From positions 51,398,001-51,462,000 of the forward strand of contig OZ024740.1 in the NCBI GenBank assembly GCA_964016885.1: DNA of 64,000 nucleotides, written 5' to 3'. Numbering within the stretch: position 1 is the first letter of the stretch; each line of letters begins with the position of its first letter. A program made the position numbers and the translations under genes. This stretch comes from Eledone cirrhosa (taxonomy: Eukaryota). The notes below the pieces were generated by a model that saw only the letters and a list, made by a program, of their open reading frames with translations, made no database searches and was not told the DNA's origin. This document shows, one piece after another, positions 1 through 57,342 of the stretch.

Positions 1-332
1 ATTAATAGAAATAATTTTACCACATGTTGATGGTCAGTTGGTCACAACTCCCAGACCGGAGTGTGTAGAGAAGAACAGAAATCTTCCCTTGGTAAGGTTC
101 AAGTGGTCCTTTCGGCTGCCGGTGCAGGAAGTGGTAGTTAATGCCTTGATGTCCTCAAATATATAGTCCCCAGGGGAACGCAACTCCATTTAGTACATGG
201 ATCTGCCAATGGGAGTCGAGACCGTCACAAAGGGACGCAACTCCTATACGTATCTGCCACTGGGAGTCGCGACCGTCACAAAGGGACGCAACTCCTATAC
301 GTGCTGAGTTACAGCCGTAAGGGGCCGCTACA
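1..332 (-). repeat. 3' LTR of Gypsy element 1 (partial)
   Basis: Near-identical to 4552-4883; contains a ~50-bp internal tandem duplication. Confidence 0.93.
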
Positions 333-589
333 GTACCCTCCTCCAGACGATAGGCGAAAAGCCCGAAGGTAACTGTAGTGAACCCACAAGCATGGCCTCC
401 CAGCACAGGCATGAAATATTAACGCAAAGGTACATGTATAAATCAGGCATGAAATAGTAACGAAAAGGTACATGTATAAATCGGGCATGAAATAGTAACG
501 AAAAGGTACATGTATACATAGTAATACAATAAAGAGAAAAACAAAAAAGGCTCCAGTGGCCAGTTCACATGAAAACAGTTTGGCAGAGT

Positions 590-3500
590 TTTGGGGGCCA
601 GTGGACTCTTCGACCGGTGAAGGTGGGGCAGAAGGAGCAGGTGTATGCACAAGAGAGAAAGATTGGGGTATTTGTGGCTCGGGTGTATGAGCGTCATTGT
701 ATGCCCTTTTTAGTCTATCCACCGAAATTGTCTCTCTGGACCCCTTAATGTCTACTGTGAAATGTTTGTCAGTACGTGCTAACACACGGTAGGGTCCAGA
801 GTACGGCTGTGTGAGGGGTGGAGCAACCGCGTCGTTTCTGACGAATACATGTGTCCACAAGGCAATATCCCTCGGGACTGCAGCTTTAATAGTTTGTTTC
901 CTAGTATTCATGGGCGGTAAATCCTGAAAATAGGAGCGCAAACGAGATACGTAGGAAGCTGGGTCCTGGAAAGCAATATCAACAGGGGCAAGCATTTGCC
1001 CAGGCAACGCTAGAGGAGCACCATACAGTAATTCGGCCGGTGAGAACCCATGGTCCTCTTTTATTGATGACCGAATTCATAACAACACAATAGGAAGGCA
1101 CTCGCTCCAACGTTGAGAGTTTGGATAAGCGCGAAGAGCGGCCTTTAATTGGCGGTGGAATCGTTCCACCATTCCGTTCGAAGCAGGATGATAAGCTGTG
1201 GTCCGAATCTGTTGAGCACCAATGATCTTTGTGAGCTCAGAGAAGAGATGAGACTCAAATTGTCTACCACGGTCTGTGGTGACTGTAGTTGGTACCCCAA
1301 AGCGGGTAATCCAACCTGATACCGGGGCACGCGTTACAGTCTCAGCAGTAATATCTTGTAAGGGGATGGCTTCAGGCCATCGCGAAAAACGATCGATACA
1401 GGTCAAGAGGTAAGAATATCCACTACTGACTGGCCAAGGTCCAACGATATCAATGTGGATGTGTCGAAACCGAGCATCTGGAGTACTGAAAGTACCAAGT
1501 GGAGTCCGGATGTGTCTGTGGACTTTAGATCTCTGACACTGTGTGCAGGAACGGCACCAGACAGTAATTTCTCGCCTCATATTGGGCCAGAAAAATCTAG
1601 CCGTTATAAGCTTTACCTTGGCAGAAATTCCTGGGTGAGAAATGCTGTCCAAAGCAAGGAACAAATGGTCGTGGTGAATCCGTAGATACATCACATAGAA
1701 TCTGCCTGTCGGTGGTCGACAAGGGCAGATATTTGAAGATGCAAGTCGCAAACTCGGCAGAAAGAGTATCCAACGATTGGAGTACAGGTTGGTCTGCAGC
1801 TAAACGACTTAAGTCGATCGCCTGGGATGACGAGATGGAGCTGATTGGCAAACGTGACAATGCGTCTGCAGCTATGTTAAGCGAGCCAGCAATGTGCTGG
1901 ATATCACTTGTAAATAGCGAAATGTAATCCAGGTGCCTTGTCTCTCTGGGCGAATATCTGTCGGCTTTAGCCCTCAAAGCGAAGGTCAGAGGTTTGTGGT
2001 CGGTTAAAACAGTAAAATTTCTCCCCTCAAGAATATGAGAGAAATGTTTCAGGACGGATATATGGCTAATAAATCCCGCCCAAACGTGCTGTAATGCGTT
2101 TCTGCTGGTTTCAGCTTCCTTGAGAAAAATGCCAAAGGTTGTTGGTTTCCAGCGTTGTACTGCTGTAAAACTGCTCCCACAGCGGTATCAGATGCATCAA
2201 CACAAAGCGAAAGCTTGGCCTCTGGTACCGGGTGGGCTAGCAAAGATGAACTAGCGAGTGCTGTCTTGACAGTCTGGAAGCTGTCCTTGTGTCAAGGAAA
2301 TATCGTCATTCTTCTTACGACGATTTTTCAAAATGTCAGTAAAGGAAGATAGCAAATTAGCACAATGAGGAACGAAACGCCTATAGAAATTGATTAGGCC
2401 TAAGAAGTGACGCAACTGGTGAAGTGTAGTAGGCGGAGGTAAATCCTGTATGGCTTGAGCTCGCTGAGAGAGCGGCCTAATACATTCGGCGTCGATGAGG
2501 TGGCCTAAAAATTTTAGCGAAGTGGAACCGAAAACACACTTTGCGGGATTCACACGAACGCGGTAATCCTGAAGTCGCCGAAATAAGAGATGCATGTGGC
2601 GCATATGCTCTTCCGGAGAGGAACTAGCGACGAGAAGATCGTCTATGTATGTATAAACGAAGTCCAGACCACGAGTGACTTCGTCTATGAACCGCTGAAA
2701 AGTGCTAGCAGCATTCCTGAGTCCGAAAGGCATGGTAAAAAATTCGAAGGATCCGTTTTCGGAATATCCTCCTTCCTGACCGGAATTTGGTGGTAAGCTC
2801 GCACTAAATCTAGTTTTGAGAAAATGTTACACCCTGCAATGACGATGCGAAATCCTGGAGATGGGGGATGGGATACCTATCCGGACGGTCATAGCATTTA
2901 ACCTCCTATTATCCCCAGTGGGTCTCCAGTCGCCAGAAGTCTTGGGCACCATGTGTAACGGTGAAGCCCAAGTACTCGTAGATGGGCGAATAATGCCCAG
3001 CTGCAGCATACGGTCGAACTCGGACCGTGCTGCCTTTAATTTGTCCGCCGGTAAGCGGTGTGGACGCGAAAACACTGGAGCACCGGTGGTGGAAATGAAA
3101 TGTTCAGTTGAGTGTGTTGGTTCAGTGACTCGAAAATTTCCATCGGTGAGCTCCGGGAAGGAACCTAACAACGAATGGTAGGCGTCTCCAGCGGCGGCGA
3201 TGAAGAATATGGGGCTGACTGTTGGAGCATTTCACGAATTGAAAAACCGGTAATGTCATCCACCAGGCGTTGGCCACGGACGTCCACAGTCAAAGAGAAG
3301 TTGTGGAGGAAATCCGCTCCTAAGATAGGATATGGCAAATCGGCAACCGTAAAAATCCACTTAAAATCCCTACGATGATTTAGGAATTTGAAAGGAAGCG
3401 AGATTTGTCCGTACGTCTTTATAGGCGAGTGATTAACGGCCTGCAGGGTAACGGGTGACTCCACGGGGGTATCTTTCAGACAATGGACCGGCCAAATACT

Positions 3501-3602
3501 ACAGGAGGCTCCTGTATCCACGAGGAAACCTCTTCCCGACATAAGGTCCTTAATGAAGAAATAGCGGTTTGGTGGCTTTATGTTGAGGTCAACTTCCCCC
3601 AT
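590..3602 (-). pseudogene. pol: Frameshifted Gypsy pol (protease, RT, RNase H, integrase)
   Basis: ORF pieces contain LVDTGA (protease), MPFGL..YIDD (RT), DASD (RNase H) and [22 protein letters not shown] (integrase), split by stops and frameshifts. Confidence 0.93.
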
Positions 3603-3870
3603 CAGCTGACCTCTTTGGCGTTTCCCACCTTATGAAACGAACAAGGTTGCTCGCAGTGGTTCGCGCTCTCGGCAAATCGCTCATGGTACCAGCATAAAGA
3701 TGAAGCTGGTGACCTGGAGCGGCGTCTAAAAGATTGAGATCTCCTGCACGATCGCAAACGGGCACCACACCAGACCTTCATCATCTGAAGCTCCAGGGTG
3801 AGTTTCTGAATGGACTTCTGCATCGCCATAATGGCTGAGTGAGATGCCATTGTTATACCGTAGGTAATCT
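3602..3870 (-). pseudogene. Gypsy gag C-terminal remnant
   Basis: RSRSP..LCWYHERF...CEQPCSF motif directly upstream of the protease; no N-terminal gag is visible. Confidence 0.75.
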
Positions 3871-4462
3871 GCAAAAAAAAAAGCGTCTCCGTTTGGAAAA
3901 ATGTCTCCAACACGAGGGAAAAAGAAAACAAATTCGCTTGTTTTTCTCTGTCAAATAACTGGACAGGAAAAAGAATGCATCCGAGACAACATGTAAAGGA
4001 GCAACTAACCGAGTGATGTCATTAACAAGGTATAGGCAGGGAATTTAAAACTAAAACGAACATGGCGGACGATTTCGCGCCAAAAACACTATTGATGGAG
4101 AAGAAAGCCGCCATCTTGTTATCCTCAAAAATTTTAGCCAGAGAAAAGAAGAAAAGAAGAAAAAAACATTTATACAATTGTTGTTTCGCTAGGAAACTAG
4201 CGGCAATATTATGTTATCTTTTTTTTTTTGTGAGTGTTTGTGTGTAAATAAATGGAATGTTCGCTTTGCACATATAAGGAGTTTGACTGTTAAAATGTTA
4301 CAGATAAAGATGCTGAAATTAGTAAAATACAGCCAGATCGGAATGAAGCGTGGCGTGTTGTTTTGTATTAAATGTTTTTTTCTTTCTCTTTTTTTTATAT
4401 ACACATGGTACCGTTTCCCATTCTTTTTTTTTTTTTTTAAACGTCAGGTCACCAATTTAGAA

Positions 4463-23910: not shown

Positions 23911-23952
23911 TTAAGCAGCTTCCTCTTTAAGCCTGTCCTTTTTGAGTGGACC
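23911..23952 (-). CDS. RPL3: RPL3 exon 8 (terminal)
   Basis: [13 protein letters not shown], followed by AATAAA at 23891-23896. Confidence 0.96.
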   Translation of the reverse strand, partial: GPLKKDRLKEEAA

Positions 23953-26900
23953 CTGAAAAAGAAATAGTATAGCCATCATGAGTATGATAGTTAAAAAGCA
24001 TCATAAGAATCTGATTCTGAATACAATCAATGTATCAGTCGTAGGCGACAGGGTAATGATATAATGCCATACCCTATGCATAATAACTGAACTTTAATAT
24101 CCGAGACTCGTAGCACCAAGAATTTATGTGAAAATAATTTGTGACTCTAATGAGCTCGTAATGAAGGTGGTCTTGAAGCAGCCACATTTTGTATATTTCA
24201 CTTTAGTGTGACAACAGTTATTGTAATATTTACACTTAGCAACACAAAATTACAATCAGTAAAATTCAACAAACATACCATAAAGTTTCTCTTTTCAGCC
24301 AAAGTTTGGAAGCGACCATTTCCAAATTTACTGGCAGTATCAATGAACTTCAATGTAATCTTCTCCAGAGCTTTACGCTTGAAGTGAGTCAGAAGAGACT
24401 AAAAAGATAAAATGGAAAATTTAGTAACAGTGTCAAGTAATAACAAGTGAAACCATTAATTAAGGAAGGTATTCATTATATTACCTTGCGCATGGTAAGA
24501 ATCCTCTTTCTTGGTCCAACAACACAGCCCTTTAACATTAGGAAATCTTGATTCACTTTACCATAGTGAGGGAAGCCACCAACAGGAGTGATAGACTTGT
24601 CAGTTGGATCATAGTCTGTAGAAGCATTGTTCTTGACCATTTTTCCTTCATGCAAATGAATACCACGGCCAACACGATATATCTTTTTGTTGATCTCAGT
24701 ACGATGGTGATAACCTTTCTGACCAGCTCTGGCAACAGAATACTGGACTCTGCTAGGATGCCAAGCACCGATACAAGCAACCTTTCGCAAGCCCTTGTGA
24801 GTTTTCCTAGGCAATTTCTTGGTATGCCAACGAGAAGTTACACCTGAAAAGAGATATTTAGTAAATATAAGCAACTATTTAAACTCCTAAATGAATAAGT
24901 ACTAGCCGTGTTATAAATAATAGAGAGTACATATTAAAAGAAAACTGACCTTTCATGCCCTTCCCACGAGTAACACCAATAATATCAATCAATTCGTCTT
25001 GTTGGAAGACATCAGCAATAGAAATTGGCTTCTCCAAGTTGGCTCTGGCCCATTTCACTTTATCTTCAGTGGTACCACCGTTCAGTTGAATCTCAGATAT
25101 ATGTGCCTTCTTGGTGCGTTTCCTCAATTGGCGAATCTAAAATGGAAAATTAGTATTAGTAAATACGTTTTCAAAATTAGACCTTAGTTAAGTTATTTGA
25201 TAACTTAGGCTTATCTATGAAAATGAAAAAACATACTAAGCTAATTATAAATTTAACCTTCTTTAATTAATGAAGAATTTCAAGAGATCTACTAAAATTA
25301 TTAACTATTTCATTAGTGAGATAGTAAACTTTAATGTAAGGTTCATATATAAAATTGTCGAAAGATTTTAATTTATATACGAAATCATTAAATAGAACCA
25401 GAGCCGGTTTGCTACTAAAAGGTAATGAATGTCAATACTTATCTCACCTGCGTATGGACAATAATCCTAATAGTGTTGCAATAACGGATCATCTTCTGAT
25501 AATCCTTTTCAATACTCTTCTTGCCAGCTTCATCCAGGTACTTCTTAGCGTATTTGGTGTATGCCTTCCTCTTGGAACGGGACCTTCAATGTAGGAGGGG
25601 AATAAGTAGCAAGCCTCATCACTGACAGTGAGCGGAGACTCGTTACATCAAGCAACTCAGCTCAGTCAGACCAGCCGCCGACACACATACTAAGTACTTA
25701 AGATATATCACACTAAGCTGATAATGTAACATTAAGTAACTAGCATATGCATTGAGGGCCAGTTGAGAGGAACTATACCATTGCTTAGCTGCAGACATCC
25801 CCTGCATATACGCGGTATAGTGCTAAAAGAAAAGCCAAGACAATTTAATACACATATATACCGTATACACTCAATAAGCAGACCCCTATTTTGTCTGACA
25901 AGTAGGCAAATATCCAAACCCCCTTAACAAGCTGACACAGCGAGAGCATGTTTTATCTTCGTAATATAAAATAAAAAATGCGTTGTAATGTGCGCAATTA
26001 GTTGTGCGACCCAGACAACACATGCGAGGCATGTGGTCCTCGGGGGTGGGGGGGGGGACACCCCTCAGTTTGAAGTATATTAGTTTTGTAACTATATTAC
26101 TATTAATATTTTACCAATTTCCCATCGCTTTGAAGACCATATTCATTCAAAATAGAAAATATGAAACTTTCTAGTACCCCATTTACATAGAATTTTGAAG
26201 TCGAAAAATATTTTCAAAATATATCTATATATAAATACATACGGTATATGCATATTTGAACAATAACCTGAATTTGTTAACTCACCAGTTCTTATAGAAA
26301 CGACGCCTGCACTCTTCCCCAAGATGTTCAGCGAAGATAGACTTGAAAGCACGTGGACCACGTGGGGTATCGATGTAACCAATGATACCAATACAAACTA
26401 CAGGTGGGCATTCAATAATAGTGACACCTTCCAATACTTCTTTTTTATTGACCTCTGAAAATTAAGAAATGGTGTTAGTTGGTTGCTCCAACAAAATTAC
26501 GCCACAATTTTAGCTACTATCGGAGATAGCCCATTGAGAATTTACGATCGTTCGGCCATTTACAATTTTATACTTGCATCAAAGATATTTTTACTTTTTC
26601 GAAACAACCTATAACTACAAATAAAGAACTCACGATCGAATGTAAAAAATCTCATTTGACTTGAAAGCATGTAGAAATGTTTTATCGGAGCTTCTAAATA
26701 AAAACTACCGTAACAATATGTAAATGCATAGAACAGCCACTCATCCCGATTTCAGTGGGACATTTCCCCCCGAAAAACGGAGTAGATGAGTTTACAGATC
26801 TACACATTCGTGTTAATAGAAAACTTTTTCATCTGCCTTTCCACGTGTAATCGTGGAATCTCGCTAACCCTAATCCTTCCAACATTTATCGTGAGGTACG

Positions 26901-28083
26901 TTAAAAAAAATATATATATATATATATCACACGAAAAAGAGCCCCCACCTCCATATGGGGAGATCCTTTGCGGCATGTTCTACTAGTTGATAACAAAAGA
27001 AAAATAGGCGATATCCAATTTTAGTGGACTAAATGCTGCTTACTTCAATGTATGAGGCTATTCCAACAAATTTACATTCCCTTTTTTTTTTTAGCCGTTA
27101 AAAGAAATATAGATTTATTTGCCACTAGAGCATTAGTCGGGGGAAGTTTTTACAAAAATTAGTAGAAACATTTGAGTGATTAATAAGGAATATAAAAAAT
27201 TAAGTCCTCAATAGAGAGGCAGCCTTTTGGGGTCACACACACCGCCGTAGAAAGTGTGCGACCTTTCTGCCATACTTGATTTTTGTAAAAACTTCCCGCC
27301 TAATGCTCTAGTGGCAAATAAATCGCAAAAAAAAAAAAAAAAAAAAAATACAATAAATCTATATTTCTTTTAACGGCTAAAAAAGGGGGAATGTAAATTT
27401 GTTGGAATAGCCTCATACATTGAAGCAAGCAGCATTTAGTCCACTAAAATTGGATATCGCCGAAAAATATTTTGCACTGAAACCGAGGCGGAGTGCTTTT
27501 CCATGAAAGCGAAATTTCAGTTTTTCAGAATCTAAATTATTTCTGCAATAAATTTGCTGAGCTTAATTTTTTTTTTCATGCATAAAAAATTACAGTAATG
27601 TAAAATAATTCTTTAAATTTAAATTATTTAAGTCCACTGTAGGAAAGTGCAAAATTTACTATAATTAGTGGCACTATGAAAGTAGTCTCTTCACACGTGG
27701 CCGACATTCGCCATCTTGGCAGATATCACATCGGCGACAATCATATGCTAATATGAGATTAATTATTCGAAATCTAACTTACTTGAACCAGGTCTGTCTA
27801 CTTCACGAACGATGTGAGTCATCCCAGCCTTATAACCCATAAAGGCGGTTAAATGAACAGGCTTTTTGGGATCATCTTTTGGAAATGCCTTTATTTTACC
27901 CTTGTGACGTTGACTTCTCTTTTTAGGCAGAAAGCCTTTAGAACCATGCCGAGGAGCTGAAAATTTACGATGAGACTGAAATGATAAAAAAAATAATAAT
28001 AATACAATGAGTCTTTTGAATAATATTCTCTCATAAAACTAAAATAAAAGTTAGTCAGAAGCTGCCAGGAGTCAACTTACCAT
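23911..28083 (-). CDS. RPL3: 60S ribosomal protein L3 (uL3), 8 coding exons, 402 aa
   Basis: Exons 28083-28081, 27975-27783, 26454-26286, 25583-25448, 25136-24950, 24843-24485, 24398-24279 and 23952-23911. All introns are GT-AG and the CDS totals 1209 nt: [13 protein letters not shown]...[13 protein letters not shown]...[13 protein letters not shown]. Confidence 0.98.
24018..24160 (-). ncRNA. Candidate intronic box H/ACA snoRNA in RPL3 intron 7
   Basis: Hairpin - H box ATATTA (24100-24095) - hairpin (TCAGT/ACTGA and AGGGTA/TACCCT around an internal pocket) - ACA (24023-24021); ~140 nt. Confidence 0.65.
24279..24398 (-). CDS. RPL3: RPL3 exon 7
   Basis: [38 protein letters not shown]. Confidence 0.97.
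24485..24843 (-). CDS. RPL3: RPL3 exon 6
   Basis: [30 protein letters not shown]...ILTMRK. Confidence 0.98.
24950..25136 (-). CDS. RPL3: RPL3 exon 5
   Basis: [13 protein letters not shown]...[13 protein letters not shown]. Confidence 0.97.
25448..25583 (-). CDS. RPL3: RPL3 exon 4
   Basis: [18 protein letters not shown]...[12 protein letters not shown]. Confidence 0.96.
26286..26454 (-). CDS. RPL3: RPL3 exon 3
   Basis: [22 protein letters not shown]...[15 protein letters not shown]. Confidence 0.97.
26728..26983 (-). ncRNA. Unidentified structured intronic RNA candidate in RPL3 intron 2
   Basis: 12-bp terminal stem with one bulge, enclosing at least five hairpins; mismatches read as G-U pairs on the minus (sense) strand. 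Confidence 0.45.
27007..27461. mobile_element. MITE with ~150-bp TIRs (Merlin-like) in RPL3 intron 2
   Basis: GGCGATATCCAATTTT...AAAATTGGATATCGCC termini; 8-bp TSD GAAAAATA (26999-27006 and 27462-27469). Confidence 0.9.
27694..27718. promoter_or_regulatory. E-box (CACGTG) and YY1-type site (CGCCATCTTG) in RPL3 intron 2
   Basis: Exact motifs ~400 bp downstream of the predicted TSS; both are common in ribosomal protein gene regulatory regions. Confidence 0.4.
27783..27975 (-). CDS. RPL3: RPL3 exon 2
   Basis: [21 protein letters not shown]...[18 protein letters not shown]. Confidence 0.97.
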
Positions 28084-56078: not shown

Positions 56079-57342
56079 TCTCTGGAAGAATTGGTTGTGT
56101 TCTAACCTGGAGAAAAATGAGCTCCACCAGTTTAAAATATCAAAACAGTGCCTCTATGAATCCATCAAAAGTTAAGACACCTTTTCAATTTCTTTATTTC
56201 TTATTTAATCTAGGAAAGCAATAGAATAGTGTAAAATTCACATATGATTGCTGGCCAATTAAAGGTTAAACAGGGTGCTCCTGTACTCAGGTCATTAACC
56301 CTGGCCAACAGCACCAAGACAGAATTTGAACTCAGAAAACAAAGAGCCACAACAGATACCACAAGGCTCTGATAATTCCACCATTCCATCACCCTGGACT
56401 GTTACTTTATTTATCAACTCTGAAAAGATGAAAAGTGAAGTTGATCTCATTCTATCACTGTTCTAATAACTGCCAATTTACATTTAGCCACCTACTAAAA
56501 TAATGATGATTACCTTAAAACATCTGGCTGGATAATACTTACCAATCCCACTTTATCTCAGAAATGTTAAAGGATTGGCAATAGAAAAGAAGTGTTAACC
56601 CTTTAAAAATTTATATACAGTGGAAAATAACAGTTTTGTATCATAGAATCTGGAGGAGTCTCAAGTGGTTTGTTTATGAGACAGTTGTTGTAGAAAGTAA
56701 AATTGTTCCAAGTTAGCATGAAAATATGACTCATGTGACATAAGCTAGTATGAAAAATGTTTCTCTGAATTCTAAATAACAAAAAATCAACACAAATAAA
56801 TATTAATTTAACTTGATAATTTTAAGTGAAAGAAGATGTGAAAATATTGTTTGTTTGCTTTTGTCACTTTGTTGCATGAGAGCATGTGTGTGAGTGTGTG
56901 TGCGTGAGAGAGAGAGAGAAAGAGAGTATGGAGACATTTGTCCCTTGTAGTCGTTGTTATTTATTAACCCCGAGTCATTCCTGACTAAGCAAGGCCTATG
57001 ATCAAAAGCATTCTAGTTATGATCATTCCATCATTTCCATTGGGCATTGCATTCACAGCCTTATCCTGCTGAAAGCACCACTTCTCATCCAATCATTGAA
57101 GTTAAGCAATATTGAGACTAGTTAGTACTTAGATAAGTAGCCATTTGGGAAATATCGGTGCTGTAAGAATGTTTTTATGGGTAGATGTGAACATTAAAAG
57201 TTGTAGAAAAGGCAGCCCATTGTTGCTCAATGGTTTTGTGCCTTATATTTTAAAAAAATGTGAATTGGCACCAGGAAAGGCATACGACCATAGAATTCTG
57301 CCTTCAAATCCATACAAGCATAGAAAAATAGACATAAAACTG

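Follow-up and report, generated by a model that had tools for sequence, protein, structure and literature searches.

A repeated CKC/Y internal-loop RNA motif in RPL3 intron 3 of Eledone cirrhosa and distant animals: a candidate sensor of uL3

Between two competing acceptors of RPL3 (uL3) intron 3, Eledone cirrhosa carries a short RNA hairpin with a characteristic internal loop (CKC on one strand opposite Y on the other), which recurs in the orthologous introns of distant animals. We consider it likely that this hairpin binds surplus uL3 and so shifts splicing to the upstream acceptor, i.e., to a stop-containing form predicted to be destroyed by NMD. Judged by comparison of sequences, the motif is a well-supported conserved RNA structure, whilst uL3 is its presumed ligand.

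RPL3 lies on the minus strand of the window (i.e., the whole 64-kb stretch of DNA analyzed in this work), as do the features given below unless a plus strand is indicated. Its coding span of eight exons (23911..28083) splices into an intact frame of 404 codons, and the region of intron 3 is single-copy in the 3.0-Gb genome. This intron (25584..26285, 702 nt), delimited by the spliced frame and by comparison of loci, is in phase 2, splits the W codon of RRFYKNW and occupies a codon position common to other animals. Exon 3 (26286..26454), supported by the frame and by RNA contigs, offers one donor to two acceptors: the productive one (25584..25600), which is weak and ends in GAAG, and an alternative (poison) one (25823..25840), consisting of a pyrimidine tract and AG. 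The initial annotation had rated the latter the better of the two, and so it is: 14 of the 17 letters upstream of 25823 are pyrimidines (11 T), against 13 of 17 (6 T) plus AAG at 25584, and a PWM derived from intron-2 acceptors of other animals gives them 3.2 and -0.6 respectively, the second being the weakest among the 8 acceptors scored in RPL3. Use of 25823 adds a poison extension of 239 nt (25584..25822) to the 136 nt of productive exon 4 (25448..25583, from frame and RNA contigs) and brings in an in-frame TAA at 25734-25732 (feature 25732..25734), as had been claimed; four junctions follow, the last of them 950 nt away, i.e., the premature stop precedes a later junction by more than 55 nt. 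The GC-richer block noticed near 25600-25680 was recovered too (0.48-0.52 at 25580-25700). The branch point of the productive acceptor is predicted, from its letters, to be CUUAU at 25602..25606, with the adenosine at 25603.

Some further features of the gene and its surroundings are reported here in their own right. G runs occur upstream of the poison acceptor (26073-25880) and a GGGG in the hairpin that follows it (H1, below); human regulation uses G runs. Intron 2 holds a long inverted repeat (27047-27144 / 27300-27480, arms of about 100-130 nt), probably left by a transposon and possibly a substrate for editing. The last RPL3 intron contains an H/ACA snoRNA candidate (24029-24161; Rfam ceN100 at 42.6 bits, E 8.7e-6, below the cut-off of 80, and SNORA3 at E 0.015), and a diverged 5S rRNA-like copy with many broken pairs (57051-57169, plus strand, 58.6 bits) is probably a pseudogene.

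RNA contigs show that the upstream acceptor is used in related organisms. Eight runs were chosen from 24 listed, all of them assembled contigs with no treated samples; they were retrieved by words common with the intron 3 region and are therefore biased towards containing the segment (part or all of the extension is covered in 8 of 8), and the RNA status of the relatives' runs is a guess. A skip of 463 nt joins exon 3 to the extension in contigs of X1 (organism A) and X14 (organism E), where it is listed one base off and was read as G for C at the first extension base, and in X18 (organism H) the end of exon 3 is a loose end at 25820. The junction which the initial annotation proposed to look for is thus seen in 3 of the 8 runs, which represent three related organisms and three studies; it is not listed in the same-species run X23, whose exons are spliced and match the window near-exactly, and whose contig across the extension (25555-25973) has it attached to the upstream intron, not to exon 3. 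Contigs of X11 and X5 continue into the upstream intron as well, and the pyrimidine tract and AG are retained there. Contig depths, which are not isoform ratios, are 6.7-95 for the extension against 200-4400 for the exons (X1, X14, X11), and in X23 the extension reaches 41 against 5-6 for introns; uncovered intron parts in the relatives may reflect divergence. By analogy with human and fly data, the extension-containing product would be degraded by NMD.

The distant loci were collected with a pattern made of the exon-3 end and the GT donor, which gave 55 metagenome loci, 54 of them RPL3-family and 42 with the whole intron; after removal of 5 identical introns, 37 were left, and 38 introns were compared once the window was included. 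The position of intron 3 (phase 2, RRFYKNW) is the same in 54 of the 55 other animal loci, including vertebrate, in agreement with the homology suggested at the outset, the search pattern itself having selected for position. By protein similarity two loci are vertebrate (L034, L049), one is insect-like (L029) and three are bryozoan-like (L011, L016, L018); most others are unplaceable by this measure, and no non-bilaterian was established among the loci. Some of these loci also carry matches to known snoRNAs, namely U83B above cut-off in L003:4159-4251, L034:3563-3654 and L049:363-454, and weak U43, U83 and SNORA73-like matches in other RPL3 loci, L030 being among the loci listed.

The motif, first spotted by eye, has two stems separated by a 3x1 internal loop (CKC opposite Y), with a 5′ strand YUC-CKC-U and a 3′ strand A-Y-GAR, the inner stem and hairpin loop being free in length. 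Written as a regular expression, it is found in 31 of the 38 orthologous introns, among them vertebrate, insect-like and bryozoan-like ones and that of the window, with 47 copies in 19.7 kb, often repeated (up to 3 copies over 200 nt). The reverse strands have none, 100 shuffles average 0.21 (maximum 2), and the 112,745 nt of flanks (112.7 kb) have 2. Together with the single significant CM match in the 64 kb of the window, this confines the element, within the sequences scanned, to the regulated intron. When the scan was tuned differently and 2 near-duplicates were left out, 24 of the 36 remaining introns had 36 copies between them and the reverse strands had 4; CUC (26) and CGC (10) took the first places among all 64 loop triplets. 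Six of the 38 introns (L013, L020, L031, L036, L041, L048) have no motif by any scan. L013 (2297-3163), a single example, is the orthologous intron of a bird RPL3L, its exon 3 being identical to avian L3-like proteins; the regular expression, the CM and the triplet scan found no motif copy in it, and Rfam no match.

Pairing was tested with partners picked on one stem and pairing scored on the other, so as to avoid circularity, against 5000 shuffles, a control that ignores relatedness. The four positions of the outer stem pair in 37, 31, 33 and 26 of 42 cases (p<=0.0032) and those of the inner stem in 38, 32, 31 and 31 of 44 (p<=0.0004), each with several pair types. Of the 47 copies, 34 were aligned (span <=45), after removal of near-duplicates and of 3 others at the analyst's choice; 91% of cells are paired and covariation is 0.57, against 0.16 when shuffled and at most 0.15 when slid, the copies having been preselected for pairing. 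With a CM built from this alignment 26 sources were searched, and copies held out of training came back at E<0.05 from L016 (2), L021 and L035. In L009 and L043 a 3x2 variant (CUC opposite AA, closed by C-G) stands beside a canonical copy, and the distance from the end of the last copy to the productive AG is at most 65 nt in 14 of 29 introns. The comparison of these introns shows, as far as sequences can, a loop under selection for both structure and loop sequence; the alignment of intron 3 between molluscs and vertebrates, with a test of covariation, had been proposed initially, and this is what it yielded.

The arrangement of the two acceptors seems to be shared as well. Of the productive intron-3 acceptors 9 of 36 read AAG, compared with 0 of the 20 from intron 2 (p 0.02). 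Scored with a leave-one-out matrix, which was trained mainly on intron-2 acceptors and may favor intron-2 sites, the productive acceptor is beaten by an AG upstream of it in 18 of 20 intron 3s, and in 5 of 20 intron 2s. All the predicted extensions (34 of 34) contain a premature stop or a frameshift, which was not counted as evidence because most intronic extensions would give one. The initial annotation had left the choice between a conserved and a convergent switch; the motif and the weak productive acceptor are shared across phyla, and conservation rather than convergence is therefore favored.

Two copies of the motif can be recognized in the window. The canonical one, copy 2 (25610..25642), has an outer stem of 8 bp, CGC at 25634-32 opposite U at 25618, and an inner stem of 4-5 bp. 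It is the sole minus-strand match of the regular expression within the window and the only window copy recovered by the CM (29.8 bits), of which it was a training member. In X18 the change G25614>A turns a U-G pair into U-A, so that the pair is kept, and letters of the hairpin loop vary. Copy 2 lies just upstream of the predicted branch point, its end being about 7 nt upstream of the branch adenosine. Copy 1 (25659..25774), assigned by eye and missed by both the regular expression and the CM, would be a 3x2 variant closing a long stem, with CUC at 25769-67 opposite CU at 25665-64; its strands are retained in the relatives while its middle diverges. In the predicted lowest-energy fold, however, the 3′ strand of copy 1 pairs with the 5′ strand of copy 2, the motif state being 1.7 kcal/mol higher and the outer stem of copy 1 having a predicted pairing probability of about 0.09. 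The cross-paired fold would partly mask the branch point (p about 0.4), whereas the motif state would expose it.

The initial annotation had pointed to another hairpin, H1 (ACUAUACC/GGUAUAGU, 25772..25821), directly after the poison AG, as a possible uL3 sensor. H1 (25821-25772) does fold as described, only modestly above chance (z -1.9, 11 of 200 shuffles equally good). It is nearly invariant among close relatives, with no compensatory change there, and was not seen, on inspection by eye, in the orthologous introns of distant animals. Its conservation would thus be at the level of the lineage, and as an ancient sensor H1 has to be given up in favor of the CKC/Y loop further downstream, which is the deeply conserved element. 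It has 3 bases in common with the outer stem of motif copy 1 in the pair table, and may be a degenerate third copy, a GCG/U loop register being possible. The long inner stem of copy 1 (25670..25763) behaves differently. The hairpin containing it (25772-25660, stem 25763-25670) is very stable (z -5.0, 0 of 200 shuffles as good), and its sequence and length vary freely among relatives: in X13, X18 and X20 the substitutions are concentrated in it (25680-25758), along with indels, and in X20 a diverged block of 80 nt is replaced outright, while 25628-25663 and 25759-25820 are almost without listed change. Over the extension X1 differs from the window by 15 letters and 5 gaps in 268, which is comparable to the coding exons.

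An intron-3 cryptic 3′ splice site of human RPL3 with NMD was reportedly described by Cuccurese in 2005. In the passages available from the papers cited here, both known systems named in the initial annotation are found: the upstream cryptic 3′ splice site of human RPL3 intron 3, coupled to NMD (PMC3177206, PMC12811116), and an NMD isoform of C. elegans rpl-3, for which the orthologous intron is named (PMC4937301). The human isoform goes from 1.4% to 42% without NMD (PMC12811116), rpL3 overexpression raises it, and the feedback switch is assigned to hnRNP H1 on G runs (PMC3177206). With the fly RpL3 isoform (PMC2689934), there are published cases of RPL3 unproductive splicing in human, fly and worm alike, and the splice event described here is a further member of this known circuit: like the human one, it involves the same gene, intron 3, an upstream acceptor extending exon 4, and a premature stop. 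The published cis-elements of human RPL3 are the G runs bound by hnRNP H1, with no loop motif in the passages available, whilst NMD and feedback in the window are presumed by analogy. Drosophila RpL3 and C. elegans rpl-3 are also orthologues with an NMD-target isoform, but the accessible parts of these reports give no cis-element (PMC2689934, PMC4937301), and a search for a conserved stretch found none for rpl-3 (PMC4937301). The nearest parallel in another ribosomal protein gene may be L10ARE of RPL10A/rpl-1, which is likewise intronic, between two alternative splice sites, conserved across animals and unlike the rRNA site of the protein; it is, however, a single sequence-conserved stretch of 39 nt between 5′ sites with binding shown, whereas the motif is found between 3′ sites, in repeated copies and with its structure conserved (PMC4937301, in part).

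Closest to the motif itself is SNORD139/snoU82P (RF01151), which is also at the end of intron 3, pairs with the upstream intron by the branch point and lies within the NMD extension. In the accessible text of PMC10324135 SNORD139 is not detected as a mature RNA, its complementarity to the upstream intron is kept 'in different species', and the human duplex is predicted to expose the branch point; a crosslinked duplex joins about -22..-51 to -62..-89 from the acceptor (2 reads, supplement of the same paper). It is described there as a vertebrate snoRNA-host pairing, whereas here it would be the 3′ strand of a repeated internal-loop hairpin, present in invertebrates too. The snoU82P match in the vertebrate L049 runs from the motif 3′ strand to the AG, which suggests that Rfam snoU82P corresponds to that strand plus the acceptor, and snoU82P is, from position and length, probably human SNORD139. 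The parts seen of PMC5640933, PMC7941889 and PMC12218528 contain no RPL3 motif, and the open literature searched (i.e., outside subscription papers and bioRxiv supplements) describes neither the repeated loop motif, apart from the vertebrate snoRNA-intron duplex, nor the mollusc splice event, so that the cis-element appears undescribed as such.

The mechanism we favor starts from the competition between the strong upstream acceptor at 25823, which is used in relatives, and the weak productive one at 25584. The product of the former has its stop 950 nt before the last junction and would, on human and fly precedent, be degraded by NMD. Free uL3 would bind the loops and hinder recognition of the branch point at the weak acceptor, as suggested by the closeness of the last copy to the branch adenosine; more speculatively, binding to copy 1 would also unpair the foot of H1 next to the poison AG. 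The fixed unpaired loop, the repetition and the confinement to intron 3 argue for a protein ligand, and uL3 was chosen because it is the protein known to shift this splice event. The accessible literature yielded no uL3 binding to a CKC/Y loop; what it holds is a crosslink of RPL3L to RPL3 intron 3 in human, its position unmapped (PMC12811116, in part). Counting against a uL3 sensor, the same source reports that RPL3 overexpression left the isoform unchanged in C2C12 cells. There was no sense-strand CM match in the organism's own LSU rRNA, nor a CKC/Y loop in the aligned rRNA at model positions 1629-2480 and 2634-3250 (the LSU 3′ end, L064, being without alignment), and a rationale by rRNA mimicry is therefore lacking.

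This last point, the cross-pairing of the copies in the lowest-energy fold and the exposure of the branch point by the motif state all leave weight with a different reading, which we hold possible although rather doubtful: the loop hairpin would be an enhancer of the weak productive acceptor, holding its branch point open or binding an activating splicing factor, and uL3 would disrupt it or act indirectly via hnRNP H, KHSRP and NPM, poison splicing still being regulated. A motif state that frees the branch point fits an enhancer better than a silencer; such a role was proposed for the human duplex (PMC10324135), hnRNP H1 is needed in human cells (PMC3177206), and yeast RPL7B is autoregulated through inhibition of a structural enhancer (PMC12311795), to go by the portions of these papers available. 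A purely structural enhancer, however, needs neither a fixed CKC/Y loop nor up to three copies over 200 nt, and RPL3L does crosslink to the intron RNA (PMC12811116, in part).

It is improbable that use of 25823 is splicing noise or incomplete splicing and that the fold owes its preservation to some other role, for instance a long stem serving as miRNA precursor or ADAR substrate. In favor of this, cephalopods have extensive RNA editing, the long stem has very high stability, contigs of the isoform have low depth, and in the same-species run the extension is joined to the upstream intron; on the other hand, three organisms from three studies use the acceptor, both arms of the long stem have diverged freely where the strands of the loop persist, and the two-acceptor layout recurs across animals. 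As a miRNA precursor the long stem was rejected: both arms have many substitutions and indels in relatives, with no conserved 22-nt arm, and a family search of the window gave no miRNA family match (best E 9.5). Still less credible is a box C/D snoRNA like U82P/SNORD139, or a C/D-like k-turn, in which UGAUGA would be box C and the acceptor end box D. UGAUGA is present in many motif copies, and in the L049 intron the final 49 nt give an Rfam snoU82P match of 44.2 bits (cut-off 42), but the putative box C changes together with its partner strand (CGACGA, CCAUGA, ACACGA, GGAUGA), the acceptor in the window has UUGA instead of CUGA, no U82P match was found in the window at E<=10, an RNA of this kind would overlap both the branch point and the AG, and mature SNORD139 went undetected in the human data (PMC10324135, in part). 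In place of a fixed box C RUGAUGA and box D CUGA, there are box C-like letters that covary with the upstream strand, and this candidate was set aside.

Returning to uL3 sensing by the loop, its widest form, to which we give even chances, is that a repeated module, in place since at least the ancestor of vertebrates, insects, bryozoans and molluscs, would be a direct sensor of uL3/uL3L without rRNA mimicry, that SNORD139/U82P would be a misread half of it, and that RPL3L would act through this cis-element when it silences RPL3 in heart muscle. Feedback splicing of RPL3 was recognized some two decades ago, yet a search for a conserved element came up empty (PMC4937301), and a motif of 30-40 nt with a fixed loop makes binding and minigene assays directly possible. 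If the reading is true, the element would offer a target for relieving the RPL3L-driven repression of RPL3, which is linked to neonatal cardiomyopathy (PMC12811116, in part); a listed snoRNA would be re-assigned, and the circuit would extend to molluscs and bryozoan-like animals.
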